Of a stretch of DNA of 64,000 bases, positions 14,456 to 57,431 are shown in pieces. The DNA lies in NCBI GenBank assembly GCA_965204495.1, contig OZ241989.1:1504312-1568311 (forward strand), in the 5' to 3' direction. The notes under the pieces are model-generated. The model had not been told where the DNA came from and searched no databases. It saw only the letters and a program-made list of their open reading frames with translations. A program made the position numbers and the translations under genes. How positions within the stretch are numbered: the first letter of the stretch is position 1; each line of letters opens with the position of its first letter. Source of the DNA: Candidatus Hopanoidivoransaceae bacterium. Lineage in GTDB: Bacteria; Actinomycetota; Acidimicrobiia; Acidimicrobiales; Hopanoidiivorantaceae.

Positions 14456-14466
14456 ATGCCCCCGCA

Positions 14467-37233: not shown

Positions 37234-37248
37234 GCTTCCAGCCTAGTT

Positions 37249-39979: not shown

Positions 39980-39998
39980 AGCGATACCTCACAGCTTT

Positions 39999-41423
39999 TC
40001 ACAACGCTTCCAAGAATGCCAGCAGATCCTCACGCTCGTCAGAGCTTAGAGAGCGGAACGCTTCCTTTGCCGACTCTGCTTCGCCGCCGTGCCAGAGGAT
40101 GGCTTCTTCTATGGTTCGCGCCCGGCCGTCGTGCAGCAGGAAGCGGTGGCCGTTCACATCGTCTATCAGCCCTAGGCCCCATAGGGGAGGAGTGCGCCAT
40201 TCGGAGCCGGTGGCGGCGAAGTCGGGACGGTTGTCGGCTAAGCCTTCGCCCATGTCGTGGAGGAGAAGGTCGGTGTAGGGGTGGATGGTCTGGTCGGCGA
40301 GGGTGGCGATGTCGGAGGGGCCGGTTTGGAGAGTGGGGGTGTGGCAGGCGGCGCATCCGATTTCGCCGAACAGCTCATAGCCCTTGCGCACGGAAGCGTC
40401 TTCGGGGGTGCGCATGGCGGGAACGGCCAGCGTGCGGTTGTAGAAAGTCACCGAATCCAGTCTGGAATCGCTCAGCTCCGGCTTGCCGCCGTTGGGGGCG
40501 ACAGCGCAGTCGGCTTGCACGGCGGGGCAGTTTTCATCGGGGTGTATGGCGGAGGTGATGCCGATGTCGCCGTGGAATGCGCTTGCTATCTGCTGTTCCA
40601 CTGTGGCAACATTCGCCTTCCAGCCGAAACGGCCGAGCGACATCGTGGCGGCACGGGCATCCCACACATAGTTGGCGCGCCCTGAGATGCCGTCGCCGTC
40701 GGCGTCATCAGGATCGGCCAGAGCCAAGATCGCCTCTTCCGGAACGGCCTCCAGCAGCCCCGCGCCTATTACCTGCGGGGCGAGACGAGGGCTGGTCTGA
40801 ATGTCATCAGAAAGCGAACCGAAAGCCAAGTCCACGATTTCATATATAGGGTCTCGCAGCTCAAACTCTTCTCCGTCGGCGTACTGGCCGGGCACCGCCT
40901 TGTAGCTGACTTTCAGGTCGCCTTCGGCGGGCACGCCCAGCACCGACCTGTCTTGAAGCTGACTGCCATAGTTGGGATCGGGCAGGGGCGCGCCTGTGTC
41001 GGGATGCTGGCCGGGCACCGACAGGCGCAGCAGCAAGCCGAGACGGGCTTCTTCGCCGGTCGGGTCGGGGGGCGCGCCTCGTCCGTCATGGGTGTGGCAG
41101 GAGGAGCAGGCTTGGGCGTTGAAGGTGGGGCCGAGGCCGTCGCGAGCTTCGGTGGAGGCGGGGGCGATGACCCAGTTCTGTGAGAAGAAGCTGTCGCCGA
41201 TTTCAAACTTGCGGCGTTCCTCGTTGGTGAGACCGGGCGAGGCGAGACCGAAGGCGTTGCTCGTGGCGTCTTCACGAGTGGTTTCGCCGCCGAGGTCGGC
41301 TGGGGGCACGGCGAGCGAGGATGTGCTAGAGTCAGAAGTGCAGGCACTGGCCGCTAAGAGAGCAATCGCGGCCAGTGCTGCTACGGCACCCAAGCCTCGA
41401 ACCGAAGCCGCTATTTTCGGCAC
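39999..41423 (-). CDS. di-heme oxidoreductase / putative peroxidase (DUF1111 family)
   Basis: Two CxxCH motifs (CSSCH, CAACH), a signal peptide, and the standard position between imelysin genes. Confidence 0.8.
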   Translation of the reverse strand: MPKIAASVRGLGAVAALAAIALLAASACTSDSSTSSLAVPPADLGGETTREDATSNAFGLASPGLTNEERRKFEIGDSFFSQNWVIAPASTEARDGLGPTFNAQACSSCHTHDGRGAPPDPTGEEARLGLLLRLSVPGQHPDTGAPLPDPNYGSQLQDRSVLGVPAEGDLKVSYKAVPGQYADGEEFELRDPIYEIVDLAFGSLSDDIQTSPRLAPQVIGAGLLEAVPEEAILALADPDDADGDGISGRANYVWDARAATMSLGRFGWKANVATVEQQIASAFHGDIGITSAIHPDENCPAVQADCAVAPNGGKPELSDSRLDSVTFYNRTLAVPAMRTPEDASVRKGYELFGEIGCAACHTPTLQTGPSDIATLADQTIHPYTDLLLHDMGEGLADNRPDFAATGSEWRTPPLWGLGLIDDVNGHRFLLHDGRARTIEEAILWHGGEAESAKEAFRSLSSDEREDLLAFLEAL

Positions 41424-41474
41424 AGGATGGGTGTTGCTGTCGGTCTTGCCAACCCTGCGATCTAGCCAGCCCTG

Positions 41475-42692
41475 CTAGGTGACATTGATCGTCACTCCGA
41501 GGGCTGTGGCAGCAGCGACTATGGTGTCGGTCTGGTCTTCCAAAGACACTATGCCAGCCAGCACAGCCATGCGGCCTGGGTCGCTGTCGGGCACGCCGTC
41601 ACGCAGGTGCTGATCGAACGGGCCGGGGATCTGCGAGACGGTCGTGACCGAGCTGGCCACCTCGGAATTCAGCCGAGTTGCCAAGGCGGAATCTTCCTCG
41701 TCTACTAGATCCAAGATGCTGGTTCCCGTTACGCCGCCGGGGTAGTTGGCGGTGAGCACCATCTGGATGCCGCGAGCGTTGCCCACGATGTCACGGGTGG
41801 TGTTGTCGGAGAAGCAGGAGTGCTCGTCTTCCTGCGACCGCTCGGAATACGCCACATTCATGCGCTCGCCCGCAAGCTCGCCTCGTGACAGCTCGCCGAT
41901 GCCGGTGATGATGTTGTTGAGCGCCTCGCTGTTGCTGCGCTGAAGGAAATCGGCTCGGTAGTTGCTGGCATCGGGCGCCCACTCGTCACTCACTTGCTGA
42001 AGGTGGGTGAGCAGCAGGTCGGACGCCACTCGCAGATACTGAGCGCGGCGGTCGGCGTTGGAGCGGCTGGTGTAGTCGGACACGGGGCGGTTGCCGGGGC
42101 CGGATGCGCTGAGGTCTTGGCCCCAGAGGAGGAACTCAATGGCGTGCCAGCCGGTTGAGACATTTTCCTCGCCGCCTTGCTCGTTGAGCGATGTGAGCAG
42201 GTCGGCGTCAATCGTGGGGAAGGTGGCAGGGTCGTTGATGATGCCGGCATCGGGCGCGCCCTCCACATAATCAATGTATGCCTCGTCCAACGGCCAAGCA
42301 TTTACGAGACCTTCAACCTCTTCGATCGGACCGTCATAGAAGCGGAATGCCTCGGTGGGGCCGTAGTCTTCGCGGGCGGACAGCCAGGTCTGCTTGGCGG
42401 TGTTGAGCGTTTCGCCAGACGGGTCGGCGAGGAAGGCGTCAATGGCGCTGTCCATCACGCGGGCCGTTGCCAGCGAAGCTTCGTAGGATGCCCTGACGCC
42501 TCTGGCATAGGTAGCGATGGCGTCTTCGGTGGAAGCGTCGCTGTCGTCGTCATCGCTGCCGCAAGCTGTGGCGATCAGCCCGAGGGTTGCCGCGATGGCT
42601 ACTACGGGAATCAGCAGGCGGCGGGGGGCAGAGCGGCGGGGGGCAGAGCGGCGACGCGGGCTGCGCTGGTTGTTGCTAGTTAAAAAACTCAC
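41475..42692 (-). CDS. imelysin family protein (IrpA-like)
   Basis: STGWHAIEFLLWGQD (imelysin HxxE region). The Arg-rich signal peptide carries a duplicated RRSAP unit. Confidence 0.75.
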   Translation of the reverse strand: MSFLTSNNQRSPRRRSAPRRSAPRRLLIPVVAIAATLGLIATACGSDDDDSDASTEDAIATYARGVRASYEASLATARVMDSAIDAFLADPSGETLNTAKQTWLSAREDYGPTEAFRFYDGPIEEVEGLVNAWPLDEAYIDYVEGAPDAGIINDPATFPTIDADLLTSLNEQGGEENVSTGWHAIEFLLWGQDLSASGPGNRPVSDYTSRSNADRRAQYLRVASDLLLTHLQQVSDEWAPDASNYRADFLQRSNSEALNNIITGIGELSRGELAGERMNVAYSERSQEDEHSCFSDNTTRDIVGNARGIQMVLTANYPGGVTGTSILDLVDEEDSALATRLNSEVASSVTTVSQIPGPFDQHLRDGVPDSDPGRMAVLAGIVSLEDQTDTIVAAATALGVTINVT

Positions 42693-42894
42693 TGGATTTC
42701 TCCTTTGGGTTTGAGTCGGGTGTGTTTGAGTCGGAGGTTCTTCAGAGGGTGTTCGGTTGTGCTTGTTCTATTCTTTAGAAGTATGTTAGCCATAGTTAAC
42801 TAGTTTTGACAACCTATGTTTACAAGAAATTTTTTCTAGCCCGCCGCGACACGACAAAGGCAGTGCGGCAATAGGCGGGCGGTAGAATTCACAT

Positions 42895-43872
42895 GTGAGT
42901 TTTCCTGCCAGAAGGATGCGCCGTCTGAGGCGAACTGCGGCTTTGCGCCGGCTCGTGGCTGAAACCACTCTGGCCCCTGCCGACCTGATCGCTCCGCTCT
43001 TCGTGCGAGAGGGCATAGATGCCCCCGAGCCGATCCCGTCGTTGCCGGGCGTGGTTCAGCACACGCTCGCCTCGCTGCGCTCGGAAGCGGCCGAGCTTCA
43101 AGCTTGCGGCATCGGCGCGGTCATTCTCTTCGGCGTGCCCGAAGTCAAAGACGCTGTGGGCTCAGGGGCCTTCGCCCCAGACGGCATAGTGCAAGTCGCT
43201 CTAGCGGAACTGCGGGAAGAATTCGGTGACAGCATCGTGCTCATCGCCGACCTCTGCGTGGACGAATACACCGAACACGGCCACTGCGGAGTGCTCACCG
43301 CCGAAGGCGCAGTCGACAACGACGCCACCTTGGAGATATATGCAAAAGCTGCCTGCGCTCAAGCTGGCGCAGGGGCCGACATTGTGGCGCCCAGCGGAAT
43401 GATGGACGGCCAAGTGGCAGCCATCCGCTCTGCGCTAGACGGCGAAGGCCGCCCGGAGACAGCCATCCTCGCGTATGCGGCTAAATACGCCTCCAGTCTC
43501 TACGGGCCGTTCCGTGATGCCGTGGCGGTAGAGCTTGCGCCCGGCCAAGACCGCCGCGCCTACCAGCAAGACTGGCGCAACGCCAGAGAAGCCTTGGAAG
43601 AAGTGCGTCTAGACATTGAAGAAGGCGCAGACATGGTGATGGTGAAGCCGGCGGTGACATATCTGGATGTGATCCAGCGAGTGCGCCAAGAAGTGCAGGT
43701 GCCGCTAGGCGCATATCATGTCTCAGGCGAATACGCCATGATAAAAGCCGCCGGCGCAGCAGGCTGGCTAGACGCCGAAGCCGCAGCCATAGAGCAGCTA
43801 ACAGCAGTAAAACGGGCAGGTGCCGACTTCATCCTCACCTACTTCGCCAAAGAAGCAGCCGAACGGCTCTAA
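42895..43872 (+). CDS. hemB: porphobilinogen synthase (delta-aminolevulinate dehydratase)
   Basis: RMRRLRRTAALRRL N-terminus, DLCVDEYTEHGHCG, MVKPA, YHVSGEYAM. Confidence 0.95.
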   Translation: MSFPARRMRRLRRTAALRRLVAETTLAPADLIAPLFVREGIDAPEPIPSLPGVVQHTLASLRSEAAELQACGIGAVILFGVPEVKDAVGSGAFAPDGIVQVALAELREEFGDSIVLIADLCVDEYTEHGHCGVLTAEGAVDNDATLEIYAKAACAQAGAGADIVAPSGMMDGQVAAIRSALDGEGRPETAILAYAAKYASSLYGPFRDAVAVELAPGQDRRAYQQDWRNAREALEEVRLDIEEGADMVMVKPAVTYLDVIQRVRQEVQVPLGAYHVSGEYAMIKAAGAAGWLDAEAAAIEQLTAVKRAGADFILTYFAKEAAERL

Positions 43873-43975
43873 TGATGTGCTAGCGGGTCGCGGGCATGCG
43901 CATCCAAGGCTTCGGACATGGACGTTTCGGCATCGGCGATTCGTTCAGCTAGTCGGTCTTCGGTCTGTCCGATGA

Positions 43976-44146
43976 CTACTTGATGCCTTGAGTAGCATCA
44001 CGGATGGCGGCCCGTGTCTGCTTGTGTTCGTTTGCGGAGTGTTTGCGGTCTTGTATCGCACGGTGGTCGGCTTTAGTAAGCCGCTTGTCAATGCTGTCGA
44101 GCCGGGTGGCGATGTCGGCTAGCGTAGGTTCTTTGTCGGTTGCCAT
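43976..44146 (-). CDS. small hypothetical coiled-coil ORF (56 aa), possibly a frameshifted remnant
   Basis: MATDKEPTLADIATRLDSIDKRLTKADHRAIQ.... An adjacent frame continues to 43869. Confidence 0.25.
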   Translation of the reverse strand: MATDKEPTLADIATRLDSIDKRLTKADHRAIQDRKHSANEHKQTRAAIRDATQGIK

Positions 44147-44270
44147 TCGACTGCCTTTCTATTGCGGATATCGCTATTCTAGCATGAAAAATCCTAGTCG
44201 CCAACATTATCCGCCAGCCCAGTCCGCATCACCGCCCAAGAACTCGGCAAAAAATATTTCCGAGAATGAC

Positions 44271-44299
44271 TTGACAAACACGATCAAACATGCTATAGT
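44271..44299 (+). promoter_or_regulatory. near-consensus promoter P1 (TTGACA-17 nt-TATAGT), ATG 7 nt downstream
   Basis: cTTGACAaacacgatcaaacatgcTATAGTgatctatATG. It is paralogous to the P2 block at 50019-50068 on the opposite strand. Confidence 0.7.
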
Positions 44300-44306
44300 G
44301 ATCTAT

Positions 44307-44630
44307 ATGAACATGAGAAGACTGCCAAGTTTGCCTGCAGGCGTTGGTCTGATGGCACCCAGTCTCGCCCCTGTCCAGCAAACGGCTACTCCTGGGCATA
44401 ACCTGCGGAGGGGGGCTGATTGCTCATTAGGAGGGCAGTCTAGAAGTTTCCCTTGCGCCGCGTCGCTGCTTGGGTTTCTGGCGCAATCTGTGGGGGTCTT
44501 GTTTAGAGGGAGGGTTTGCAGTTTTGTTGCGGGGTGTGTTTGGCGACAGGGCAGAGAATCTTTGTCGCTTGCGAGGCGAAGTGATGGGGATATGAGTGTT
44601 TGCCTAAGTTGGCATTTGGAGGTGCTGTAA
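44307..44630 (+). CDS. putative leaderless 107-aa Cys/Arg-rich ORF
   Basis: The ATG lies at leaderless distance from P1, and the stop overlaps the next start (TAATG). The first 22 codons align without gaps to the N-terminus of the 49494-50024 ORF (shared P7, L9, P10, P18, L20, P22). The composition is otherwise unconvincing. Confidence 0.4.
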   Translation: MNMRRLPSLPAGVGLMAPSLAPVQQTATPGHNLRRGADCSLGGQSRSFPCAASLLGFLAQSVGVLFRGRVCSFVAGCVWRQGRESLSLARRSDGDMSVCLSWHLEVL

Positions 44631-46204
44631 TGGAACTTTCGGACATTTTCAGCAGTGAAACTCAGGTATCTTTTGTTTTTCCATTTAAGTTAAGTCTGTC
44701 GTGTGTCATTTTTGAAGGCAAGGACGAGGAAGTCCAATTTGACTATGACAGGTGGAAGAGTCGTGTCATTTGCAAACTTATTTGCCACAAAAATTCTTCG
44801 GATGGCTGTTATTTGTTTTCTTGGGATGAAGTTGCCGAAGATCTTTCGGATTCTTCTAGCTGTGAATTTTTGCCCAACTGTTTTCTGAAAGCCAAAATTG
44901 AGGATTCTGCCAAATTAGGATGGCTTAATGATTGTTTAAGAGATTTCAAATTTAATGGACTTGGCTTAGAAGTAAGTTGTGTTGAGATGAAGCTTTGGGA
45001 GTTCGGCTTCGGCTCAATCAAAATAGTCTCGAAGGTCATTTCGGATTTGTTAGATGGCGAACAAAAATCATTGAGTGAGGTACTCGATGATTTTCAAACT
45101 ATGCTTAATGAAAAATTTTTGAAAATTTTGGAACCCAAAATAGATTACGAAATTATTTGGAGATGCAATTTTCAAAGAAAGGATGATCCAAAAGAAATTA
45201 CAAGTTTTGCGGAGATTGCTCTTAAGCATAAAAAGAAAACTTTTCAACAAAAAAACAAGGATTACACAAAGTATAATTTTGATTTGTTGGAGCCTATATC
45301 CACTGTTCAAAGTAAAATAATAGACGAAAACGATGATAATGTAATTAATATGCAATCCTCGGGTTTGCGTAGAATAGAAACTAAAGATGAAATTGAAGGG
45401 AACTCATTTAAGATTTACATTTCAAATAACAGGAAGTTATTAGTTTCAATTTTTCAACAGAATTCAGAAGAATATGACAAAATTAAATTTAATGAAATTA
45501 TAGAAACAGTTATTGTTCACAAAGAATTTGGTGTATATCTAAATAAAATTGGCCAAACTTATGAACCCTTTTTGTCAACTTATTCTGATAAAATAGCGAA
45601 AGAAAGTATACATAATAGTAAATTGTGGCCTGACTGGCACGCATTTGCTTGGAATGTCTTGCAAGAAAAAAAGGGCTTAGATACAATTTTGACTGAGATA
45701 CAGGAAGTATCAAGAATAAGCATAATAATGTTTAACACTCTTGATAGTCAAGCAAATAGCTATCTGTCATATTCAAATTTGAGTACTCTCAAAATTGCAA
45801 ATAAAATTTTTGACCTGAATAGAATACGTGACAGCAACAATGAATTATTTTCACTCGTTAATAGATATTATGCAAAAATTAGCAATCATAATGAAAAGCT
45901 ATCTTTGTTTGCTGAATCAGTAATTGCATTTTATTTTCCTACATCATTGTCATTCATTGCTTTGATTCTAAGTTTCGCGGCAATTGATGGTGCTTTTGGT
46001 GAAACATTGAGTAATGTCATACGTTCCACTTTCCCATGGAATCTCTCTATATTGCCGGTCATTGCAGTAATTGTATTATCTTTGCTGGTATCATGCGTTG
46101 AGCGTGCTGAAAAGAGAGAAATTGAAAATGCTAGGAAGCCAGGAAGTGTCTTGGAGACACATCAGTTATGGATCGAAATGCTTGAAACTGAGAAAACAAT
46201 GTGA
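44630..46204 (+). CDS. hypothetical membrane-anchored protein (524 aa), AT-rich gene
   Basis: GGAGG lies 7 nt before ATG 44630 (MELSDIF). The large soluble N-terminal region is followed by two C-terminal TM helices (SVIAFYFPTSLSFIALILSFAAI, LSILPVIAVIVLSLLVSCV). Sampled lines are ~30% G+C. Confidence 0.7.
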   Translation: MELSDIFSSETQVSFVFPFKLSLSCVIFEGKDEEVQFDYDRWKSRVICKLICHKNSSDGCYLFSWDEVAEDLSDSSSCEFLPNCFLKAKIEDSAKLGWLNDCLRDFKFNGLGLEVSCVEMKLWEFGFGSIKIVSKVISDLLDGEQKSLSEVLDDFQTMLNEKFLKILEPKIDYEIIWRCNFQRKDDPKEITSFAEIALKHKKKTFQQKNKDYTKYNFDLLEPISTVQSKIIDENDDNVINMQSSGLRRIETKDEIEGNSFKIYISNNRKLLVSIFQQNSEEYDKIKFNEIIETVIVHKEFGVYLNKIGQTYEPFLSTYSDKIAKESIHNSKLWPDWHAFAWNVLQEKKGLDTILTEIQEVSRISIIMFNTLDSQANSYLSYSNLSTLKIANKIFDLNRIRDSNNELFSLVNRYYAKISNHNEKLSLFAESVIAFYFPTSLSFIALILSFAAIDGAFGETLSNVIRSTFPWNLSILPVIAVIVLSLLVSCVERAEKREIENARKPGSVLETHQLWIEMLETEKTM

Positions 46205-46314
46205 CAGAAACTTGCATTCTGGAATCGATAAAAATAAACAAAATTATATCAACTTAAACTGCCATTTTAATAAAAATATGTCATCAAAATGGGCATACAA
46301 ATAGCAAAAATCCA

Positions 46315-48234
46315 ATGATTATTAAAACTATAAAATATCTAAACAGCGTCTTAGCTTTAACACTAGTAGTGTTATTATTTGCTGCGGCTTGTTCATCTGG
46401 TGCCTCTGACGGTGCTGATAGCACCCTGCCAGTGGAGTCTGATATGAGCGCGACAACCGCAGACGGAGTTACATCATTTTCAAGAGTCTCGACTCCTACA
46501 ACTGCTGCAGAGAGCAGTGGGGTAGAGGTTTCTGTCGTTGTGCCGTTCACATCAGGTAACGGTTCTGGATATGTGACTGTTTCTGGCGATAGTTCGCCTG
46601 TGGCAGAGTGGTTCGCTAATCAGCCAGGTGAGGTTTCGCTGGATTTGGTTGACGCTGATGTTGCCGATCCTGCCTCTGTGGTTGAGGAGATGATAAGTTT
46701 CTGGTATTTCCAAGATGGCGATAGCGGCGATGTTCCGCCGTCAATCTATGTTTCAGGCGGCGGCGAAATCACCGACAGCCTGGGCACAAGCTATGTCGTA
46801 GAAGGCGAGCTTTTGCCGCCAGCACCGGTCGCGGAAGCTGCAACTACTACGACCAGCACGACTACCACTTCTACTGCACCAGCGACTACTGCTACAACCT
46901 CAACGACTACTTCCGGTGCGTCAACTGAACAATCTGAGCCGCCAAGTACAACAACTTCGACTGAGCCAGCAATAACCACAACAACTACTACTGTTGTGGA
47001 GTCGCCGGTGACATTGCAGGTTCAAGTATTAAATGGCAGCGGTGTGGCTGGAGCAGCCGGTCGGCTTACTGCTAAGCTTGCCGAAGCTGGCTATACCGTT
47101 TTGCCGGCAGGTAACGCACCTGAAAGATACGCCACTTCTGCCGTCTACTATCAGGATGGCTGGCAGGACAGAGCCGAGGAGATACTGGCAGCATCTGAAC
47201 TAGAAGAGATAGATCAGGTTTCTGCTATGCCGCAACAGTTCGTATCGCCAGACGCTGCTGTTGTTGTGCTTATCGGCAGAGACACCGCTCCTGTTGCAGT
47301 TAGGAGCAGCGGGCCTGCGCCGATTACAAGGTATCGGCTAGGACCAGAAGATGTTCCGATTAATGTGCCGAAAGATAGGTTCGATCCAAGAGCTTTTGGC
47401 GCATCGCTTCCTGTGAATGTGCGTGACCGACCGGAAGATGTGGCAAGGTCAAGCAATTTACTCAAAAGAGCCGCTTATTGTTTCGAGGATGAGATTGCGT
47501 ATTTTGAGGACAACTGCTTGGAAAACGATCTGCCAGCAATCTGGGCCGAGATAGAGCAGATATTTGACAGGCTCGGTTTTACTTCTAAGAACGTTTGCGG
47601 CTCTGTAGCTGACGGCAGCTTCACAGACGGCATAGTGCACACAGCAGAATGGAACCCAGCAACCGGAAACTACAGCGGCGACCTGATTTTCACAACAGAC
47701 AGGTTTATAGAAATAAACCGCCAAGCAGGAATAGATGTGCAGCGGATAAACCCGCAAGCGAACCTAGATTTCTATCTCAGAAAAGCCGCGCAATCAGCAC
47801 ACGACAGACTCAGATTCCAAGAAATCATGAAAGAAACAAGTGCCAGTCATCTCATACTATGCGCATCATGGGTAACAGAATCAGGGTCTATGCCATGGGC
47901 AGCCTACTCAGTAGCGAACACATTCGCCGCTCCGGTAAGAGAATTTTTATCACAAGGCACATACCACATCAAAGAAATATCCAGGAACGGAAACCTCGCC
48001 CATGTTATTGTGTGCCATCCGACAATAAGAGAACGCCATATTCTCTTGCACTGGCACCAAACTGGATATCGCGCAATACAGCTAGCATACAGCACTCATA
48101 CTGGCTGCCAAGGAACTTTCGACGGCGAAACATCAATCTCAGAAGACACGAACAGAGCGGAAGACACCATCAGATACACCTTCGGCCAGCAAGTCTTCGC
48201 CGCCGCCGACCTGCAGGGGTTTCCTAGAGCCTGA
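46315..48234 (+). CDS. secreted/lipoprotein with T-rich linker, LytR_C domain and unknown C-terminal domain
   Basis: Signal LALTLVVLLFAAACSSG, then a TTTTSTTTTSTAPATTATTSTTT linker. VTLQVQVLNGSGVAGAAGRLTAKLAEAGYTV matches the LytR_C pattern. The last ~300 aa are unassigned. Confidence 0.7.
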   Translation: MIIKTIKYLNSVLALTLVVLLFAAACSSGASDGADSTLPVESDMSATTADGVTSFSRVSTPTTAAESSGVEVSVVVPFTSGNGSGYVTVSGDSSPVAEWFANQPGEVSLDLVDADVADPASVVEEMISFWYFQDGDSGDVPPSIYVSGGGEITDSLGTSYVVEGELLPPAPVAEAATTTTSTTTTSTAPATTATTSTTTSGASTEQSEPPSTTTSTEPAITTTTTTVVESPVTLQVQVLNGSGVAGAAGRLTAKLAEAGYTVLPAGNAPERYATSAVYYQDGWQDRAEEILAASELEEIDQVSAMPQQFVSPDAAVVVLIGRDTAPVAVRSSGPAPITRYRLGPEDVPINVPKDRFDPRAFGASLPVNVRDRPEDVARSSNLLKRAAYCFEDEIAYFEDNCLENDLPAIWAEIEQIFDRLGFTSKNVCGSVADGSFTDGIVHTAEWNPATGNYSGDLIFTTDRFIEINRQAGIDVQRINPQANLDFYLRKAAQSAHDRLRFQEIMKETSASHLILCASWVTESGSMPWAAYSVANTFAAPVREFLSQGTYHIKEISRNGNLAHVIVCHPTIRERHILLHWHQTGYRAIQLAYSTHTGCQGTFDGETSISEDTNRAEDTIRYTFGQQVFAAADLQGFPRA

Positions 48235-48259
48235 TTTAAGGAAAAAGAAGATTTTACTT

Positions 48260-49039
48260 TTAGCTTGACAAGACACTTATAAATTGGTCAGGGTTAGACC
48301 ATAAAGACACCACAGAAAGATCTTCAACGAGATTAAAGTCTTCAGGTTTCCAAATATCCGTGTTGTCATCAAATAGTGAAATAAACTGCTGCTTAGACTC
48401 TCCGTTGGCTAAGTGGCGAATATCATACCACCCAGCTATTGTATGTTCTACAATCCTTCGAGTAGCTGCAGTGCTTTCGGTTGCTAAAATCTGAATAAGA
48501 GATTTTTGTGATTCTGTATTAACGCTAAAGTCCACATTCCAAAACTTGCCAGATTTCCCCTCAATATTTTTTGACCGGGAAAAATTAATCTTTTTCTCAT
48601 CCATGAAATCAGCAACTTCGTCAGAAATCGAAGAAACAGCTCTTGTTCTGAAAGTGAACCAAAGATCTGAGATTCGTATAGATGCATGAGCAACTTTTGT
48701 AATGGTTTCAGCCAACGAATCTCCTGAGCGACAGCGAGCCAAAAGCATTTCTCGATAGAACTCTACGCCATGAGTGACGCAAGTATCTTGAATTAGGTAA
48801 TTCTGCTTATAGGAACGCCGCTGTGACAAAGAATGCATAGACAGCCAATTTGTTGTTTCGGCGAAATCTGTCACTATCAGCTCATCTCCGTTTTCCGTGG
48901 GCTTACAGAAAATGTCAATGACTTCCCCATCAGGGTAAAGGTAAGGTGTGCGAACACGAAACCGCCCATTTTGTTCAGTGACGGCGAATTGTTGTCCCAA
49001 ATCGGCCAACAGCGTCTCGAAGCGTTTGCTGAGGTTCAT
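48260..49039 (-). CDS. DUF1828/DUF1829-like protein (259 aa)
   Basis: FRVRTPYLYPDGEVIDIFCKPTENGDELIVTDFAETTNWL fits the DUF1828 pattern. The later GKSGKFWNVDFSV segment fits DUF1829. The start ATG overlaps the upstream stop (ATGA). Confidence 0.6.
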   Translation of the reverse strand: MNLSKRFETLLADLGQQFAVTEQNGRFRVRTPYLYPDGEVIDIFCKPTENGDELIVTDFAETTNWLSMHSLSQRRSYKQNYLIQDTCVTHGVEFYREMLLARCRSGDSLAETITKVAHASIRISDLWFTFRTRAVSSISDEVADFMDEKKINFSRSKNIEGKSGKFWNVDFSVNTESQKSLIQILATESTAATRRIVEHTIAGWYDIRHLANGESKQQFISLFDDNTDIWKPEDFNLVEDLSVVSLWSNPDQFISVLSS

Positions 49040-49491
49040 ATGAATAACTCCTCTTGTCGTGGTAATGGTGGTCCTAGTATACCTGTATGTGTTATATTGG
49101 CCAATTCGCAAAATTGTTGCCACACGGCAACAGGGTTGGAAATTTCAGCCGTGATCTCTTCAGGAACACGAGCTACTTTGTCTCTGAATTCTTCGGTCCA
49201 TTCGTGGAGGTGTGTTTCTCCTACCATATTGCAATGAGGATTGTGGTGCTCTTTGCCTAAGTCAACCCCAAATATGCGTCCATGTTTTTTATGAACAATA
49301 AGGTAGTTGAGTTTGCTAACGTCGGGATTGAAAGTAGCATGGAGAAACAGAGGCCATTCTGACACTATATCGACACGGAATTCGCTTACGGAACGATTAT
49401 TCTCCCTTCTGCCCCACTCAATGTTCCCATTGATGTATTTTGGCTCTCTAATGATTGAGCCGAATTCATGCTTGGATAACTGGGCAGTCAT
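49036..49491 (-). CDS. hypothetical protein (151 aa), His-rich motif GKEHHNPHCNMVGETHLHEW
   Basis: Tightly coupled to both neighbours (2-nt gap upstream, 4-nt overlap downstream). AT-rich. Confidence 0.6.
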   Translation of the reverse strand: MTAQLSKHEFGSIIREPKYINGNIEWGRRENNRSVSEFRVDIVSEWPLFLHATFNPDVSKLNYLIVHKKHGRIFGVDLGKEHHNPHCNMVGETHLHEWTEEFRDKVARVPEEITAEISNPVAVWQQFCELANITHTGILGPPLPRQEELFI

Positions 49492-49493
49492 AA

Positions 49494-50024
49494 TCAGATG
49501 GCGAGTCTCAGGTGCCCTTTACCGCTAACCGATCGGACACTACTTGCTTTTGAAGGGTGAGCGGAGTTTTCGATAATTGCATCCAGAAAACTGACTGGAG
49601 CTAGAAGGTACTCTCTGTCTACAGCTTTGATAGCATATCGTCTCATGGTATTACAGCATTCGGGTTGCCTCATGCTTTTGACTATATAAGAAGGACACTG
49701 CCTTGTCAAGTGCACATTTGGGAAAATTGTTTCGCGCCGTCGTTGTCCTCTTTGACTGAATGGACATGTTGCAAGGCTAGCACATGGCGCGTGCGTGAGC
49801 ATGGGAGGCAAATGTGTTGCCGCTTTGTGATAATAGGCGGTTCGGACGAGATTGCCGAGAGATCTGTTTTGGCAAAAGCCGAGTACGCCAGCCACGAATC
49901 GGATGGCTGTTGTGCTGCTGCAGGTGCCTGCCATGCTGTCTACTGCAGCACAGTCTGCCGGCGTGAGCCGAGGCACTGTGCGACTGTCGCTTGTCGGCAG
50001 CATCGGAGCGGTTTTCTCGGTCAT
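49494..50024 (-). CDS. hypothetical Cys-rich ORF (176 aa); possibly only its last 59 codons (from ATG 49673) are a separate gene
   Basis: ATG 50024 lies 6 nt after the P2 -10 box. An internal consensus promoter (P3) places the in-frame ATG 49673 7 nt after its -10. Confidence 0.4.
   Translation of the reverse strand: MTEKTAPMLPTSDSRTVPRLTPADCAAVDSMAGTCSSTTAIRFVAGVLGFCQNRSLGNLVRTAYYHKAATHLPPMLTHAPCASLATCPFSQRGQRRRETIFPNVHLTRQCPSYIVKSMRQPECCNTMRRYAIKAVDREYLLAPVSFLDAIIENSAHPSKASSVRSVSGKGHLRLAI
49681..49709 (-). promoter_or_regulatory. near-consensus promoter P3 (TTGACA-17-TATAGT) inside the 176-aa ORF
   Basis: The minus strand reads cacTTGACAaggcagtgtccttcttaTATAGTcaaaagcATG. Confidence 0.6.
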
Positions 50025-50030
50025 TTGCCC

Positions 50031-50059
50031 ATCGTAGCATGTTGCGCGGTGTTTGTCAA
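50031..50059 (-). promoter_or_regulatory. promoter P2 (TTGACA-17-TACGAT), ATG 6 nt downstream
   Basis: The minus strand reads gagaatgacTTGACAaacaccgcgcaacatgcTACGATgggcaaATG. The first 20 nt are identical to the P1 block. Confidence 0.65.
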
Positions 50060-50136
50060 GTCATTCTCTAAAAAATTTTTGGCTTGTGCTGCTGTGCTGG
50101 AATCCGGGTTGCGGTCGCCGTTAAAGTAGCAGACCT

Positions 50137-51885
50137 ATGGGGTTTGCAGCTTTCGCGAAAATTTTCAGATACGGTATCCTAGCCGCCGTCGCACTGGCGA
50201 CAGCCTTCGCTGCTGTGCTCTGGCTGACCGCCACCCCAGCCTCAGCACTTGGCGGAGGCGGCGGGGTTGGCGACACGGAGAAGAATTGGGATACTGACAA
50301 TTTGCGGTTCGGGAATTATTCTGCTAAGAGTTTTGCTATACCGCATCTGAAGCCTAGCGAGCGTGGTTCTCATGAGGCTTGCGGGGCTGGTGTGGTGGAC
50401 GGGTTTTTTCAGCTTGATACTGATGTGCGCAACGATCTGCCGATTTTGGATGTGACGGTTCCAGCCAGCGGCGCGCCGTCTGTGGCGCACAGAGCGGCTG
50501 CGACTTGTTCGGAGTTCGTGACCGAGCAGGTTATCGCTCGTAACGTCGGTCGCGGTAACGGCGGTTATTGGCTTGACAGTCAAGGTATTCTGCGGCGAGG
50601 GTTGCCGTCTCATACCACAGGCAGGAATTACAGGACGCAGAGATGGTCGCCCAGCAGCCAGACATATCAGAGCGGCAGGTTCAGGATAGACGCTGAGACG
50701 ACTTCTGGCAGCTACGGTTTCGACGGCTATGCCGCGCGGATTGACTATTACACAGGCAGCGCAAGTTTAGCTAACGCGAAATTCAGGGTTGCGGGTAATG
50801 TCAGCTTTGCTGTTCCGCACAGCATTGAGCTAGTCGTGAACACCAAGAAGTCTGGCAGCGTATACACTTGGACACCTGTTTTTCCTGCTTCTGCCAGAGT
50901 GACCGCAGCTACGGCTGTGCATCTGCAAGCCGGAGATTATCTGAGTTTGTGCCCGTCTGGTTTTCATCCTAGGGGCGAAGACGCGGTGCGCAGGATAGGC
51001 AACGGCACAGGTAGAACCTTGTCGTCGCTGGATGAGGCAGGCGAAACCCGGCTGGCTGACCAGTATTGGTGCCGCTCCGATGTTCGCAAGCAAATATGGT
51101 ACGAACCAGAGTTCACAAGCAGAACTTGCGGCCCGGACCCACGACCGACATGTCCTGCTGGTGTGACTGTGCCAACCAAAGAATTCCAGGCTTATTGTCG
51201 TGTGGGCTGTTTTTTCACAGCCACAGATCTGGACACGACATCGATGCAAAGAGGCACAACTGCCATACAGGGCACGCAGAAGAATACCTGCTCTTATATG
51301 TATCCGATACCGCAATGCACAGAGAACGGAACTAAAAAGCCTATAGCCAGAGCCAAGCTGGACAGCCTGTATGTCGCTCCTATAAACAGCCCAGGGGTGT
51401 TTCCTTTCGCTTCTGACGGCAGCACAGCTTGCGACACTAATCCGCAATGCACCGCGAACGGAGCCAAACGCGATATGACTGACGCTGAGCTTCAAGCCTA
51501 CAGAACAGCCAGAGGCGCTAGTTTTGTTCCTGCCAGTGACGCCAGCACGCCTTGCACGGCAGCAGTCGCAGCTAGCGCGGCTGCCGATTTCACTGCCGAT
51601 GCTTGCGTGACAGCGATACTGGAAATTTACGAGAACCGACCTAAAGGTTTCAACGCCGAACCTGGTGTGCGCGCAGATCATCGCACAGTGACAGCTGACA
51701 CGGCTAATCCTGTTTTCGATTTGGATGTCGCTGCTGCGCATCCTGGAACAGCCAGCCCGCCTAGAGCGACCAGTGATCCTTCGGGTTGCGCGGACGGCTC
51801 TGAAGCAAGAGCCGACCATGGAACAGCCGACTCTGCGGCACGCAAGAACACAGGAGCGGAAGACGCCGAGGCTGCTATCTCATAG
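50137..51885 (+). CDS. secreted Cys-rich hypothetical protein (582 aa)
   Basis: Signal peptide ILAAVALATAFAAVLWLTATPASALG and many paired Cys residues. No family recognised. Confidence 0.6.
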   Translation: MGFAAFAKIFRYGILAAVALATAFAAVLWLTATPASALGGGGGVGDTEKNWDTDNLRFGNYSAKSFAIPHLKPSERGSHEACGAGVVDGFFQLDTDVRNDLPILDVTVPASGAPSVAHRAAATCSEFVTEQVIARNVGRGNGGYWLDSQGILRRGLPSHTTGRNYRTQRWSPSSQTYQSGRFRIDAETTSGSYGFDGYAARIDYYTGSASLANAKFRVAGNVSFAVPHSIELVVNTKKSGSVYTWTPVFPASARVTAATAVHLQAGDYLSLCPSGFHPRGEDAVRRIGNGTGRTLSSLDEAGETRLADQYWCRSDVRKQIWYEPEFTSRTCGPDPRPTCPAGVTVPTKEFQAYCRVGCFFTATDLDTTSMQRGTTAIQGTQKNTCSYMYPIPQCTENGTKKPIARAKLDSLYVAPINSPGVFPFASDGSTACDTNPQCTANGAKRDMTDAELQAYRTARGASFVPASDASTPCTAAVAASAAADFTADACVTAILEIYENRPKGFNAEPGVRADHRTVTADTANPVFDLDVAAAHPGTASPPRATSDPSGCADGSEARADHGTADSAARKNTGAEDAEAAIS

Positions 51886-52065
51886 ATGTCGCTGCCGACG
51901 GCAAAGTCACGGTGCAAACAGCAAGAATGGACTTCGAAACAGGCAGCTAAGCTGTGGGTGAAACCTACAGCCGGCTGTTCTCTGGCGACAGGAACTGCAA
52001 AATCAAAAGAACACGCACAGACGTCAGTGCGGTGTCTGCAGCCACAGCGAGCGGGTTTTACTGGT

Positions 52066-52275
52066 ATGCTGAATGCCATGTCAGCGGAATCAGTCATACA
52101 GCGCGACCCAGAAATTATGGGTGGAACGCCGACCTTCGCAGGTACGCGTGTTCAAATCAGGTCTTTGCTGGACGAGTTGGCATCCGGAACCTCAATGGAG
52201 GAATTCATAGAGCTGTATCCCGATGTGTCACGTCAGCAGGTCAAGGCGGCACTGCTGGAATTGTGCCCGCAGTAG
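52066..52275 (+). CDS. DUF433 domain protein (antitoxin-like)
   Basis: DPEIMGGTPTFAGTRVQIRSLLDELASGTSMEEFIELYPDVSRQQVKAALLEL matches the DUF433 pattern. The start is ATG 52066 or 52078. Confidence 0.75.
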   Translation: MLNAMSAESVIQRDPEIMGGTPTFAGTRVQIRSLLDELASGTSMEEFIELYPDVSRQQVKAALLELCPQ

Positions 52276-52288
52276 TCGCGTATATCTT

Positions 52289-52678
52289 GTGCCAACTTAT
52301 CCTCGGCGGGTTTTACTAGACGCTTGTCTCTCTCCGCAACTCAGCCAACTTTTCCCAGAAGATTTCGAAGTAGCCGATGCCAGAGCCAAAGGCTGGCACA
52401 AAATGAAGAACGGGGAGTTGACCGAAACAGCAGCGGAGAGCGGGTACGAGGCTATCGTCACCAAAGATCGTGCCTTCTATAGAAAAAGAGGGGTGCAACC
52501 GTTCCCGTTCCCTGTCTTCTTGATCATTCCGTCAGAAGGTTATGACACAGTGTCATATCACAAGCAAGTAATGCCTGCAATAATTGGCGATATGCTGAGC
52601 GGCGTAGAAAAACAGCACTACTCGTATGGAGAGGAGTTGCCGGGCTTGGAATCTGTGCATAAGACTATTTCTCCCTGA
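52289..52678 (+). CDS. DUF5615 (PIN-like) protein, partner of DUF433
   Basis: VLLDACLSPQLSQLF...ELTETAAESGYEAIVTKDRAF fits the DUF5615 pattern. The GTG start is inferred just after the DUF433 stop. Confidence 0.6.
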   Translation: MPTYPRRVLLDACLSPQLSQLFPEDFEVADARAKGWHKMKNGELTETAAESGYEAIVTKDRAFYRKRGVQPFPFPVFLIIPSEGYDTVSYHKQVMPAIIGDMLSGVEKQHYSYGEELPGLESVHKTISP

Positions 52679-52721
52679 TGCGGAAGAGATTTCCCGAAGT
52701 GCCGTATGTCCCAATCAGCTT

Positions 52722-54005
52722 ATGACTTCTAGCAAATCTTTATTCAGCCGGGCTCAGGGCGTTATTCCGGGCGGGGTGAACTCGCCGGTGCGGGCTTTCG
52801 GATCGGTGGGGGGGACTCCTTATTTTGTGTCGCGTGCCGAGGGGTCGCACATCTGGGATGCCGACAGCAATCGCTACCTTGACTATGTGATGAGCTACGG
52901 CCCGCTCATTTTGGGGCACGCTCATCCCGCCGTGGTAGATGCAGTAGCCGAGGCAGCTGCGGGCGGAACGAGCTATGGCGCGCCCACCGAGCGGGAAGTG
53001 CTGCTGGCGGAAGAACTCTGCGAGCGAATCCCGGGGATGGAAATGGTGCGACTGGTCTCCAGCGGCACCGAGGCCACGATGACGGCAGTGCGACTGGCTA
53101 GGGGGGCGACAGGGCGCGACATAGTGGTGAAGTTCGCAGGCTGCTATCACGGACACGCCGACTTTCTGCTAGCCGCCGGCGGCAGCGGGGTGGCAAATCA
53201 AGGTCTCTCAGGCTGCGACGGCGTAACGGCGAGCGCGGTGGCCGACACAATAGTCGCCCCGTATAACGAGGTGCCTGAACTGGACGAGCGAGTGGCGGCG
53301 GTGATTGTAGAACCTGTAGCAGCCAACATGGGGTTGGTCGCCCCCGAGCCAGATTTTCTGCCCCAGCTGCGAGATGCCTGCAGCAAAGCTGGCGCGCTGC
53401 TGATCTTTGACGAGGTGATCACAGGTTTCCGCCTGTGCCGAGGCGGAGCGGCCGAGTGGTTCGGTGTGCAGCCCGACCTTTGGTGCTTCGGCAAGGTAAT
53501 CGGCGGCGGACTGCCCGTAGGAGCTTTCGGCGGCAAGCGAGAGATCATGGAGCATCTAGCCCCCCTAGGCGGCGTCTACCAAGCAGGCACGCTCTCGGGC
53601 AACCCACTAGCCACCGCAGCAGGCCTTGCCACGCTAGCCGAACTAGACGTCCGAGCCTACGAAACCCTAGCCAACACCACCGCCCGCCTAGCAAAAGGCA
53701 TGGCTCAAGCCATAACCGAGGCAGGCATCGCCGCCGTACTGCCCCAAGTGGGCCCCCTGCTCGGGTTGTTTTTCTGCGACACCTCGCCGAAGTCTTTTGA
53801 CGAAGCCGACAAAGCCGCCCAGAACGGCGTCTATCCTCGCTTTTTCCACGCCATGCTCAAAGAAGGCATAGCCCTGGCCCCAGGCCCCTACGAGATCCTC
53901 TTCCCCAGTCTCGCCCACACCGAAGAAGACATCGCCCAAAGCATAAGCGCAGCCAGCAAAGCAGCCCTAGCCGCCGACGAAGCCGCAGCCGCAGCTCAGA
54001 CCTGA
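52722..54005 (+). CDS. hemL: glutamate-1-semialdehyde 2,1-aminomutase
   Basis: GVIPGGVNSPVRAF, FDEVITGFR. Start set at MTSSKSLF (ATG 52722). Confidence 0.95.
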   Translation: MTSSKSLFSRAQGVIPGGVNSPVRAFGSVGGTPYFVSRAEGSHIWDADSNRYLDYVMSYGPLILGHAHPAVVDAVAEAAAGGTSYGAPTEREVLLAEELCERIPGMEMVRLVSSGTEATMTAVRLARGATGRDIVVKFAGCYHGHADFLLAAGGSGVANQGLSGCDGVTASAVADTIVAPYNEVPELDERVAAVIVEPVAANMGLVAPEPDFLPQLRDACSKAGALLIFDEVITGFRLCRGGAAEWFGVQPDLWCFGKVIGGGLPVGAFGGKREIMEHLAPLGGVYQAGTLSGNPLATAAGLATLAELDVRAYETLANTTARLAKGMAQAITEAGIAAVLPQVGPLLGLFFCDTSPKSFDEADKAAQNGVYPRFFHAMLKEGIALAPGPYEILFPSLAHTEEDIAQSISAASKAALAADEAAAAAQT

Positions 54006-55393
54006 GCTTTTGTTTCCGGCAGCGCTCTAGCTACGCCCTTCATGGCGGCGTAGGCTAGCTCGGCGGGTTTTAGCTCGTCGGGGCGGAGGAGGTTGGCCAT
54101 TATGCGCAGGGCCCATTCCATGAAGGTGCGGGACTGCATGCCTGCGCTGGTGAGACGGCGGATGAGGTCGGGGTTGCCGATGGCTTTGGCGAAGAGGTGG
54201 CCGACACGGAAATAGAGGCCGTAGGTGCTTTCCAGCCAGCGGGGGTATTCGCCTAGGATGCCGAGGTCGCTGCGAGCCAGAGCGGAGGCGATGATGTCGG
54301 CGGCGGCACGGCCTGTTTCGTAGGCGTAATCTATGCCTTCGCCGTTGAAGGGATTGACAGTGCCAGCAGCGTCGCCCACCACGAGCCAGTTCGCACCCGC
54401 CTTGGGCTGCACCGAACCGCCCATCGGCAGCCTGCCGCCGACAGGCGCGATCTCGGGGCTGGCGGGGTCTACGCCCCAGAAGTCGGGCAGAGCGTGCGCC
54501 CACTCTTCCATGAGCCAGCTCGTGTTGACGCTCTTGTAATCCCGAAAAGTAGACAGCAAGCCGATGCCCACATTCACCTTCCCGTCGCCGAGCGGGAACA
54601 CCCAGCCGTAGCCGGGGAGAGTGTTGCCTTGGCGGTCGGTGATGTCTAGCGCGCTTTCTATCCAAGGGTCGTCATGGGCGGGGCTGGAGTAGTAAGTGCG
54701 AATAGCCATGCCCTGCGCCAAGCTGCGATCCCGCCTAGTGCCGAGCGCACGCCCGAAACGAGAGTTGGCTCCGTCTGCCACGATCACATAGCGGGCTTTG
54801 ACATGCTCGGTTTCGCCGCTGGCTTTGTCGCGGAGCACCGCGCCTGCTAGTTCGCTTGAATTTGACAGACTGACGGCCGCTATGTCGTTGCCATTTTCCG
54901 ACCTGCTGTAATCCACGCCATCTTCTGAAGCATGACCGACAGCCTCGCCATCTGCAGCAACTCCGCCTGGCCCAGATCTCGCCACAGAGCTGTTGGAGTC
55001 AAACAATGGCTTCACCGCCTCGACCCCGTGCCGCACGACTGCACCGACCGACCTGGCCCGCTCGGCCACCAGACCGTCCAAATCACGCCGGCGCACCACG
55101 AAGCCGTAGTCGGGATAGACAGGGTGTGACGGCCACGGCAGCTCTAGCACGGCACCGTGAGCCCGCACTCGCAACCCCTCGTGCCGATGCCAGCAGGCAA
55201 ACGCTCCTTCCAGTCCCATGTCGGCGAGTTCCTTGACTGCTCTCGGGGTGAGACCGTCGCCGCAGGTTTTGTCGCGGGGGAAATGCTGCTTGTCAACCGC
55301 CAGCACTTCCAAGCCGCGTTTCGCCGCCCAATAAGCTGCGGCCGCCCCCGCTGGCCCCGCCCCGACTATCAGAAGGTCGTAGGTCTCCGCCAC
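53996..55393 (-). CDS. geranylgeranyl reductase family FAD oxidoreductase (MenJ-like)
   Basis: YDLLIVGAGPAGAAAA and FPRDKTCGDGLTPRA, with an internal low-complexity insert. GTG start. Confidence 0.8.
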   Translation of the reverse strand: MAETYDLLIVGAGPAGAAAAYWAAKRGLEVLAVDKQHFPRDKTCGDGLTPRAVKELADMGLEGAFACWHRHEGLRVRAHGAVLELPWPSHPVYPDYGFVVRRRDLDGLVAERARSVGAVVRHGVEAVKPLFDSNSSVARSGPGGVAADGEAVGHASEDGVDYSRSENGNDIAAVSLSNSSELAGAVLRDKASGETEHVKARYVIVADGANSRFGRALGTRRDRSLAQGMAIRTYYSSPAHDDPWIESALDITDRQGNTLPGYGWVFPLGDGKVNVGIGLLSTFRDYKSVNTSWLMEEWAHALPDFWGVDPASPEIAPVGGRLPMGGSVQPKAGANWLVVGDAAGTVNPFNGEGIDYAYETGRAAADIIASALARSDLGILGEYPRWLESTYGLYFRVGHLFAKAIGNPDLIRRLTSAGMQSRTFMEWALRIMANLLRPDELKPAELAYAAMKGVARALPETKAQV

Positions 55394-57320: not shown

Positions 57321-57431
57321 GAGATGCAGCGAGAGTTCGTGAAAGACTGACAGAGACACCCTGCACCAAGCCCCCCCCACACCAGAGAACACCCCCAGCC
57401 CCGAAAGCCCTCCAGCCCCAGAGAGACCATC

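Follow-up and report, generated by a model that had tools for sequence, protein, structure and literature searches.

In mycobacteria, an ATG or GTG at the 5' end of a transcript is required, and is enough, for leaderless initiation, and leaderless small open reading frames (ORFs) that are coupled to the following gene through a stop/start overlap are enriched (Shell et al. 2015, PMC4633059). Leaderless short ORFs have been found to govern access to a downstream ribosome-binding site (Canestrari et al. 2020, bioRxiv 10.1101/834739), and termination-reinitiation at TGATG and ATGA overlaps has been described (PMC6728339). Promoters can also be reused, so that homologous ones, in one genome or across several, stand ahead of genes that are not homologous (Nijveen, Matus-Garcia and van Passel 2012, PMC3575422). 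Here, we analyzed a 64-kb stretch of DNA from a Candidatus Hopanoidivoransaceae bacterium (the window, by which we mean the whole stretch), in which two similar promoter blocks face each other around two convergent operons, each with a putative translated leader ORF ahead of A/T-rich cargo genes. Related metagenomic contigs and loci used for comparison carry L-numbers (L001, L005, L010, and so on). We judge it somewhat better than an even chance that the blocks are heads that each lead a separate, horizontally acquired low-G+C cassette, that translation of the leader is coupled to that of the cargo, and that a poly-G tract acts as a switch in relatives.

The leaderless coupled small ORFs of mycobacteria (Shell et al. 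2015, PMC4633059) resemble these leaders in their actinobacterial setting, in an ATG at the predicted 5' end, 6 to 7 nt past the -10 box, and in an unannotated first ORF whose stop overlaps or abuts the next start. However, those ORFs have a few to tens of codons, whereas the ones here have 107 and 176 (99 to 149 in relatives), and the promoter and about 22 codons here form a paralogous unit reused before unrelated acquired cargo, as known from sequence alone. The polycysteine leaderless attenuators (Canestrari et al. 2020, bioRxiv 10.1101/834739) likewise have a leaderless upstream ORF proposed to gate the next ribosome-binding site, and the Shine-Dalgarno sequence (SD) of the 524-amino-acid (aa) gene considered below is predicted to be mostly paired. 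In contrast to them, the leaders here have no polycysteine or sensory codon run and no consistent occluding helix among relatives, and the variable element in relatives is a poly-G tract in the DNA and not the amino acid supply.

As with mobile promoters (Nijveen et al. 2012, PMC3575422), highly similar promoters stand before non-homologous genes, but the unit here extends into the leaderless start and the N-terminal codons, with poly-G in relatives, and marks the exact cassette edge. Homopolymer phase variation, as in the Campylobacter poly-G phasome (PMC6321876) and Mycobacterium tuberculosis glpK (bioRxiv 10.1101/717272), is matched in relatives by tracts of G11 to G13 inside the reading frame, the assembled length of which differs from sample to sample and in which a change of one G restores the ORF. 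Unlike in those cases, the tract of most relatives lies in the leader ORF, so that a slip would act through coupling and not by truncating the effector, and the tract of the window is interrupted (G2AG6), so that switching is not expected there. By analogy only, the integron Pc promoter with its cassette array also heads acquired, compositionally foreign cassettes; the present locus is not a member of that class, having no integrase, no attI or attC, and a promoter of its own for each cassette. The kinds of element are known and their combination is new: a portable head that marks cassette edges, long leaders apparently coupled to acquired cargo, and poly-G in relatives.

Two paralogous promoter blocks face each other in the window

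The promoters in question are as follows.

44247 to 44306, plus strand: left block, with an A/T-rich UP-like tract (44247-44261), the -35 box TTGACA (44271-44276), a 17-nt spacer, TGc and TATAGT (44294-44299), and 7 nt to the ATG at 44307 (nhmmer block profile, E = 1e-18)
50025 to 50083, minus strand: right block, with the -35 box TTGACA (50059-50054), a 17-nt spacer, TGc and TACGAT (50036-50031), and 6 nt to the ATG at 50024 (nhmmer, E = 1e-16)
49673 to 49709, minus strand: internal promoter P3, TTGACA-17-TATAGT at 49709-49681, with 7 nt to the ATG at 49675, in frame with the 176-aa ORF of the right leader (59-aa version)

An earlier note on this DNA had proposed that a block at 44262-44312 (plus strand) is repeated at 50068-50019 (minus strand) with 20 identical nt and 17-nt spacers, that the outer copies place an ATG 6 to 7 nt past the -10 box, that a third consensus copy, TTGACA-17-TATAGT-7-ATG, lies between them, and that the outer promoters are paralogous. 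Reading the letters directly confirmed the repeat, and the distances to the three ATGs were measured as 7, 6, and 7 nt. The best three sigma-70-like sites within 43.8 to 52.8 kb are exactly these three, and the outer pair has an additional TG ahead of the -10 box (extended -10). The identical 20-mer, GAGAATGACTTGACAAACAC, occurs window-wide only at 44262-44281 (plus) and 50068-50049 (minus) with up to 3 mismatches allowed, appears in 0 of 100 shuffles of the window, and holds 14 non-consensus positions. In a repeat search, the two blocks emerged as an inverted repeat with arms of 49 nt (44247-44295 and 50035-50083) that are 82% complementary; the repeat reaches outward through the A/T-rich tract (44247-44261 and 50083-50069). 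The uniqueness of the 20-mer, together with the similarity in related copies, makes the outer pair more than two consensus promoters and upholds their paralogy. P3 is not of the block family, as it has no match to the nhmmer block profile, and probably arrived with the right-hand cassette.

A further sequence, CTTGACAAGACAC, at 48264-48276 on the plus strand, in the 3' end of the PDC-M24B gene of the right operon, is similar to CTTGACAAACAC, the core of the block, if a 1-nt indel is allowed. Together with the right block, it would make a short inverted repeat, which may well be due to chance.

The block recurs in relatives ahead of unrelated genes

The nhmmer block profile found eight copies: those of the window (winL and winR), one each in L008 and L045, and two each in L005 (L005a and L005c) and L010 (L010a and L010b). 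L068 and L069 have a divergent version of the same layout, consisting of an A-rich tract, TTGACA, 18 nt, TGcTAGTAT, 7 nt, and an ATG. The leaderless layout, with the -10 box 6 to 7 nt before the ATG, is present in every related copy found (L005a, L005c, L008, L010a/b, L045, L068, and L069), and the leaderless geometry that had been claimed for the window is in this sense kept. The copies have nothing in common upstream of the A/T tract, and downstream their likeness continues for about 65 nt into the transcribed region. Correspondingly, homology between the window and its relatives (L005, L008, L010, and L045) starts right at the block's outer edge (44244-44250).

The cargo behind the copies is unrelated. 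In the window it is the operon of the 524-aa protein and the genes of PDC-M24; L005c heads the gene of a membrane-anchored protein of 356 aa, L010a a pair of genes for 113 and 107 aa, and the copy in L045 a pair for 94 and 311 aa. As a homologous promoter ahead of non-homologous genes, the block qualifies as a mobile or reused promoter. The right copy of the window is 54 to 66% identical to all other copies and roughly equidistant from them, and it is therefore an old paralogue and not a recent copy of the left one. In L010 and L005, the blocks stand in direct orientation, and in every case a block has the orientation of the gene that it heads. Taken together, these comparisons describe what appears to be a portable, lineage-specific "expression head" consisting of the A/T tract, the -35 box, the extended -10 box, the leaderless ATG, and about 22 codons.

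The contigs of the relatives carry EccC-like FtsK/FHA genes, OtsAB, and DUF501-Ppx synteny at about 63% G+C, and from synteny, G+C, and genome sizes of 2.1 to 2.6 Mb we infer that they are actinobacterial. Searched exactly, GAGAATGACTTGACAAACAC gave 0 matches in the GTDB representative genomes. A degenerate block pattern gave 33 matches in genome contigs and 19 in Joint Genome Institute (JGI) metagenomes, all of them generic promoters (UP + TTGACA + TGnTATAAT) that belong to low-G+C bacteria and stand before SD leaders, with no relatives among them; the pattern lay too near the promoter consensus. Viral contigs held no block, no relative of the 524-aa protein, and no close relative of PDC-M24B, and phage and plasmid collections gave no DNA match to the 5.8 kb between the blocks and no protein match to PDC-M24A.

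Imperfect direct repeats flank block-headed cassettes in two relatives, at 752-1061 and 1810-2122 in L010 (86% identity) and at 14914-15058 and 16603-16747 in L005 (90% identity). These repeats copy the 3' end of the adjoining housekeeping gene, and the one in L010 also contains the block. They look like the result of insertion through recombination with a donor bearing its own version of the flank.

Leader ORFs are open up to the cargo start

The leaders and the genes that they adjoin are as follows.

44307 to 44630, plus strand: left leader ORF, 107 aa, beginning at the predicted 5' end of the transcript; its TAA overlaps the next ATG (TAATG, 44628-44632), and it has no Pfam, NCBIfam, or Rfam match
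44618 to 44632, plus strand: SD GGAGG, a 7-nt spacer, and TAATG ahead of the 524-aa gene, conserved in L005, L008, L010, L046, L067, L068, and L069
44630 to 46204, plus strand: 524-aa protein with a large N-terminal domain and two C-terminal hydrophobic helices, 33% G+C
49494 to 50024, minus strand: right leader ORF of 176 aa, paralogous to the N-terminus of the family up to codon ~22 and orphan in the remainder; TGAttATG at 49496-49489
49036 to 49491, minus strand: PDC-M24A, 151 aa, DUF6978 (PADLOC PDLC04533, E = 5.7e-51, model positions 2-150 of 151; Pfam DUF6978, 5.4e-13)
48260 to 49039, minus strand: PDC-M24B, 259 aa, DUF1828 (PADLOC PDLC04540, E = 3.2e-92; Pfam DUF1828, 5.8e-9), with the SD GAGGAG

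Both the 107-aa and the 176-aa ORF exist as the earlier note had listed them, together with the 59-aa ORF in frame with the latter. Repeating the alignment of their first 22 codons gave the same gapless result, with P7, L9, P10, P18, L20, and P22 in common, as well as M1. Over the first ~22 codons, the ratio of nonsynonymous to synonymous differences (pN/pS) is 0.55 in the ORF frame, compared with 0.86 and 1.21 in the other frames. A frame open up to the cargo start had a probability of 0.024 for 107 codons and of 0.002 for 176 codons in first-order Markov simulations. In a frame-blind nucleotide alignment, the indels of the left leader outside the degraded L010 copy measure 3, 9, 9, 36, 39, and 3 nt, all multiples of 3, and the cargo start retains its TAATG or TGATG in the window as well as in L005, L008, L046, L067, L068, and L069. 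The corresponding ratio of substitution rates (dN/dS) of the left leader is 0.48 to 0.63 in the ORF frame and 0.6 to 1.3 in the others, compared with 0.34 to 0.46 for the 524-aa gene. In most relatives the left ORF has 99 to 149 codons, with the motifs CAAS..GF.AQ and FEG.LF.GR.

From the N-terminal alignment, selection at the protein level had been suggested. The low pN/pS of the first ~22 codons and the kept left frame support this in part; the amino acid constraint is weak, and for the 176-aa ORF no homologue was found beyond its own species. Our reading is that the reading frame is probably under selection and the amino acid sequence weakly so, which is the pattern expected if translation of the leader matters and its product does not.

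A mechanism can be proposed on this basis. Driven by a strong promoter with a UP-like tract, the transcript would begin at the ATG, where 70S ribosomes would load in the leaderless manner. The ribosomes would translate the G+C-rich leader, with the frame mattering more than the sequence, terminate on the cargo start codon (left) or 2 nt before it (right), and then reinitiate. By such termination-reinitiation coupling, translation of the cargo, and probably also protection of its A/T-rich mRNA, would depend on translation of the leader. The left head would drive the 107-aa leader, the 524-aa membrane protein, and a LytR_C-domain lipoprotein, and in relatives would run on to a 582-aa protein; the right head would drive PDC-M24A and PDC-M24B, inserted in the opposite direction just past the stop codon of the LytR_C gene. 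Two features are indirect hints at coupling. PDC-M24A has no SD, its ATG lying 2 nt past the leader stop (TGAttATG), and partition-function folding of five leaders predicts pairing for most of the SD of the 524-aa gene, with partners that differ.

A poly-G tract in the leaders of relatives

At one position of the left leader, the window and its relatives differ in a run of G residues, as follows.

44407 to 44415, plus strand: interrupted G tract GGAGGGGGG (G2AG6) in codons 34-37 of the left leader, the same in the same-species contigs L001 and L003; relatives have G11-G13 at this site
L068: assembled G11; G12 restores the frame, giving a 138-aa leaderless ORF that ends exactly at TGATG
L069: assembled G13; G12 restores the frame, giving a 139-aa leaderless ORF that ends exactly at TGATG
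L045: assembled G11; G10 restores the frame, giving a 149-aa ORF, both halves of which are homologous to that of the window
L005c: assembled G11; G12 restores the frame, fusing the leaderless start to the 356-aa gene

All G runs of at least 10 in about 230 kb of the relatives' loci sit at the homologous leader position, and it is at this tract that L067 and L070 are broken off as contigs. By these frame relations, the relatives' tract would look like a slipped-strand switch, in which 11 to 13 G residues shift the leader frame in and out and so turn the cargo on or off. The leaders of the window hold no long perfect homopolymer, the left tract being interrupted and the right leader lacking one; because of this interruption, the left leader is fixed in frame. 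It is possible, though we would give it only a tentative place, that the lineage uses the head, that is, the promoter, the leaderless start, the N-terminal peptide, and a hypermutable poly-G, to switch on acquired envelope and anti-phage cassettes, with slippage taking place in the leader and not in the effector, and that the copies in the window are locked on.

Points against coupling, and two other explanations of the leaders

Several observations weigh against the reading of coupled, switchable leaders. All of the transcription starts are predictions from promoter geometry alone. In the leader ORFs, G+C hardly varies with codon position, the differences per codon position are nearly flat, and dN/dS is modestly below 1. 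By BLASTP, the leader protein of the window is not similar to the ORF of the distant relative L067, and for the 176-aa ORF the search for homologues ended, as said, at the species. The leader of L010 has a 1-nt deletion near the ORF end, and its cargo gene is split too; L066 has a homologue of the 524-aa gene without a long leader ORF. The 524-aa gene has a good SD of its own, so that coupling may be non-essential there. The tract lengths in relatives (G11, G13, and at least G12) were read from metagenomes assembled from short reads, in which homopolymer error is possible, and with an imperfect tract in the window, switching is not a property of the window locus. As to the cargo, entries of the PDC-x type are unpublished, untested candidates (PMC11811056).

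One alternative is that the leaders are 5' regions that are not translated and serve as cis-regulatory or structured RNA or as spacer, with ORFs that are by-products of G+C-rich sequence. This would account for the flat codon-position G+C, the near-flat differences, the odd translations rich in Cys, Arg, and Gly, and the scarcity of homologues: in a large protein database, the 107-aa ORF had one partial match and the 176-aa ORF matched only itself, with no homologue outside the lineage. It would also suit the nucleotide identity of the left leader to L008 and L005 (0.71), which is higher than that of the 524-aa gene (0.65 to 0.66). The flatness of G+C is, however, unreliable as a sign of non-coding sequence in this island, since the 582-aa ORF downstream is flat as well (0.57/0.57/0.54 over codon positions) and has no family match, yet is conserved in L010 and L045 with a signal peptide and WDTDNL-type motifs. 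Against an RNA role, an Rfam scan of the whole window at gathering thresholds returned nothing, and single-sequence folding of the leaders was no better than that of shuffles (z = -0.28 and -0.42). RNAalifold on four left leaders gave an unfavorable covariation term (+1.69) with compensatory changes in 2 of 63 pairs, a test of low power. Against by-product ORFs stand the six indels outside the degraded L010 copy, all multiples of 3, the improbably open frames, and a dN/dS that is lowest in the ORF frame. On these grounds, we consider untranslated leaders unlikely.

One candidate structure was considered and dropped. An 8-bp long-range helix can form between AUGGCACC (44352-44359) and GGUGCUGU (44621-44628), which overlaps the SD and spacer of the 524-aa gene, and the pairing of AUGGCACC with GGUGCUGU is preserved by G-U changes in L008 and L005. 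Partition-function folding predicts it, as the main partner, in only some of the relatives' leaders, and it was not retained as a conserved RNA structure.

A second alternative, which we also doubt, is that the leaders encode small trans-acting proteins, with coupling a secondary matter; the left one might partner the 524-aa protein in the membrane, for example, or the right one might be an antitoxin or regulator of PDC-M24. The length and conserved motifs of the left ORF in most relatives fit this, as do the N-terminus common across cargo types with its pN/pS of 0.55 and the stop/start overlap, which is typical for co-functioning gene pairs (PMC6728339). It is at odds with the weak amino acid constraint, with L067, which keeps an open frame while the sequence is not recognizably conserved, and with the right ORF, which is orphan past codon ~22 and stands before a system that PADLOC defines by two genes only.

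Two cassettes joined tail to tail in a low-G+C island

The blocks lie in a low-G+C island that extends from position 43.9 kb to position 52.7 kb, approximately, and is flanked by hemB and by a gene for a class-III aminotransferase, which we take as hemL. The earlier note's observation that AT-rich genes follow the leaders holds, since the 524-aa gene has 33% and the PDC-M24 genes have 42 to 43% G+C, compared with 52 to 56% in the leaders; the host flanks have about 63%. Its view of the 5.8 kb as one module bounded by inverted repeats does not, since the relatives L010 and L045 hold the left operon alone. In both, the LytR_C gene leads directly to the gene of the 582-aa protein, with no right-hand cassette. 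When 48238-50068 is taken out of the window, the junction is colinear with the intergenic region of L010 and L045, which delimits the following element.

48238 to 50068, minus strand: inserted cassette, made up of block, 176-aa leader, and PDC-M24A/B, missing from this intergenic site in L010, L045, and L008

Because relatives have the LytR_C and 582-aa genes side by side without it, the PDC-M24 cassette is a separate insertion in the opposite orientation. Together with the direct-orientation blocks in L010 and L005, this indicates that the inverted arrangement in the window is incidental, one cassette having apparently been inserted tail to tail beside another. The site of the left operon varies too, lying beside hemB in the window, a VCA0040-like gene in L005 and L008, and folP in L010.

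It is very improbable that the 5.8 kb is a single mobile element that moves as a unit and has the blocks as its terminal inverted repeats. This reading would suit the 49-nt inverted repeats at both ends of a low-G+C segment and an island that is 99.9% identical in two strains while the left flank is only 93 to 95% identical. However, the left half exists without the right half in relatives, the blocks in L010 and L005 are direct and each faces the gene that it heads, and the ~15 nt at the outer end of the right arm (the tract at 50069-50083) are ancestral intergenic sequence, present also in relatives without the right cassette. Searches of 43.9 to 56 kb with Pfam, NCBIfam, and PADLOC gave no transposase, recombinase, or integrase match, no tRNA lies in or beside the island, and no target-site duplication is apparent. 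A terminal-inverted-repeat transposon was rejected for these reasons. Least of all do we credit a chance resemblance of two near-consensus sigma-70 promoters with UP elements, for although the degenerate pattern matched generic strong promoters of unrelated low-G+C bacteria, all with ordinary SD leaders, this explanation is refuted by the unique 20-mer, absent from all shuffles, with its 14 non-consensus positions, by six more copies from related genomes identical at the non-consensus positions, and by an alignment that goes on ~65 nt past the start.

Two separately headed cassettes thus remain the preferred description of the locus. As a separate observation, a second metagenome contig (from the comparison of the window with L003/L001) is 99.86% identical to the window over 42883-55099, which covers hemB, the island, and hemL, and 93 to 95% identical over 34718-42836. 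The step in identity at 42883 suggests that strains have recently exchanged the whole segment by transfer or recombination, or else that a low-coverage assembly is chimeric. Between the stops of the convergent LytR_C and PDC-M24B genes lie 25 nt (48235-48259), in which a scan found no terminator-like hairpin, and transcription converging from two strong promoters may collide there.

Cargo of the right operon

The right operon is PDC-M24, a candidate anti-phage system of PADLOC. Both component models match (5.7e-51 and 3.2e-92), in adjacent, co-oriented genes that overlap in ATGA, the start of PDC-M24B lying on the stop of PDC-M24A. The earlier note had recognized no known defense system in the layout, which these matches revise. 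In comparison with the PADLOC definition, which has two genes only, the operon here has in addition a 530-nt putative translated leader and a double promoter. A literature search found no paper that mentions PDC-M24.

In L005, an AAA_14/DUF4143 ATPase that matches the PADLOC candidate PDC-S01 (1.3e-37) lies at 12952-14652 on the minus strand, in a variable region by the operon. With a PDC-S01-like gene there, the neighborhood of the operon gathers candidate defense genes in more than one genome.

Cargo of the left operon

Beyond the 524-aa gene, the left operon and its neighborhood hold two further genes.

46315 to 48234, plus strand: 639-aa predicted lipoprotein, with a signal peptide with Cys, a Thr-rich linker, LytR_C (residues 234-323; Pfam, 7.7e-13), and a C-terminal domain
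50137 to 51885, plus strand: 582-aa secreted, Cys-rich protein, its gene directly after the LytR_C gene in relatives

The 524-aa protein had no family match in Pfam, NCBIfam, or PADLOC. Its homologues number four among 5.8 billion clustered proteins and, by profile search, eleven among 1.84 billion representatives. An AlphaFold2 model of it was unusable (predicted local distance difference test [pLDDT] score, 36.8), and sequence searches of the PDB were uninformative, with the exception of the LytR_C domain (2m5y) of the lipoprotein. The 639-aa protein also has a weak Cei-like match, and its gene follows the 524-aa homologue in L008 and L010 and two other ORFs in L045. As the 582-aa gene stands directly after the LytR_C gene in relatives, it is part of the neighborhood of the left operon. 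By its predicted products, the left operon would be a very rare envelope operon.

Implications

If the proposed coupling is true, the locus offers a way for a high-G+C genome to express A/T-rich foreign genes by means of a strong promoter and a translated G+C-rich leader. The arrangement may in addition guard the transcript against premature termination or silencing. Long leaders and acquired defense cargo would then come under the idea of leaderless coupled small ORFs that is known from mycobacteria. The poly-G of the relatives would, in turn, tie coupling to stochastic switching, giving phase-variable defense or surface genes in a free-living high-G+C bacterium; to our knowledge, stochastic switching has rarely been described outside host-adapted pathogens. 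For PDC-M24, the locus flags a candidate with a defined native expression context, and the rare envelope operon of three to four genes would be a candidate surface-modification or exclusion system. Actinobacterial engineering could use the block itself as a promoter part that is compact, strong, and leaderless.

Other features of the island and the window

Divergently from the left promoter, the minus strand carries a 56-aa ORF (43976-44146) with codon-position G+C values of 0.61/0.44/0.63, typical of real genes. It has a promoter-like site of its own (44204-44176), is not in the contexts of the relatives, and may encode a small regulator. The right end of the island (51886-52678) encodes a DUF433 protein (4e-18) and then an overlapping DUF5615/PIN-like protein (3.5e-5), a probable toxin-antitoxin pair by their domain matches. 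Finally, a C8 run at 57371-57378 (G8 on the minus strand) is the sole run of at least 8 G or C residues in the window; it lies in a 314-aa minus-strand ORF with no Pfam match.

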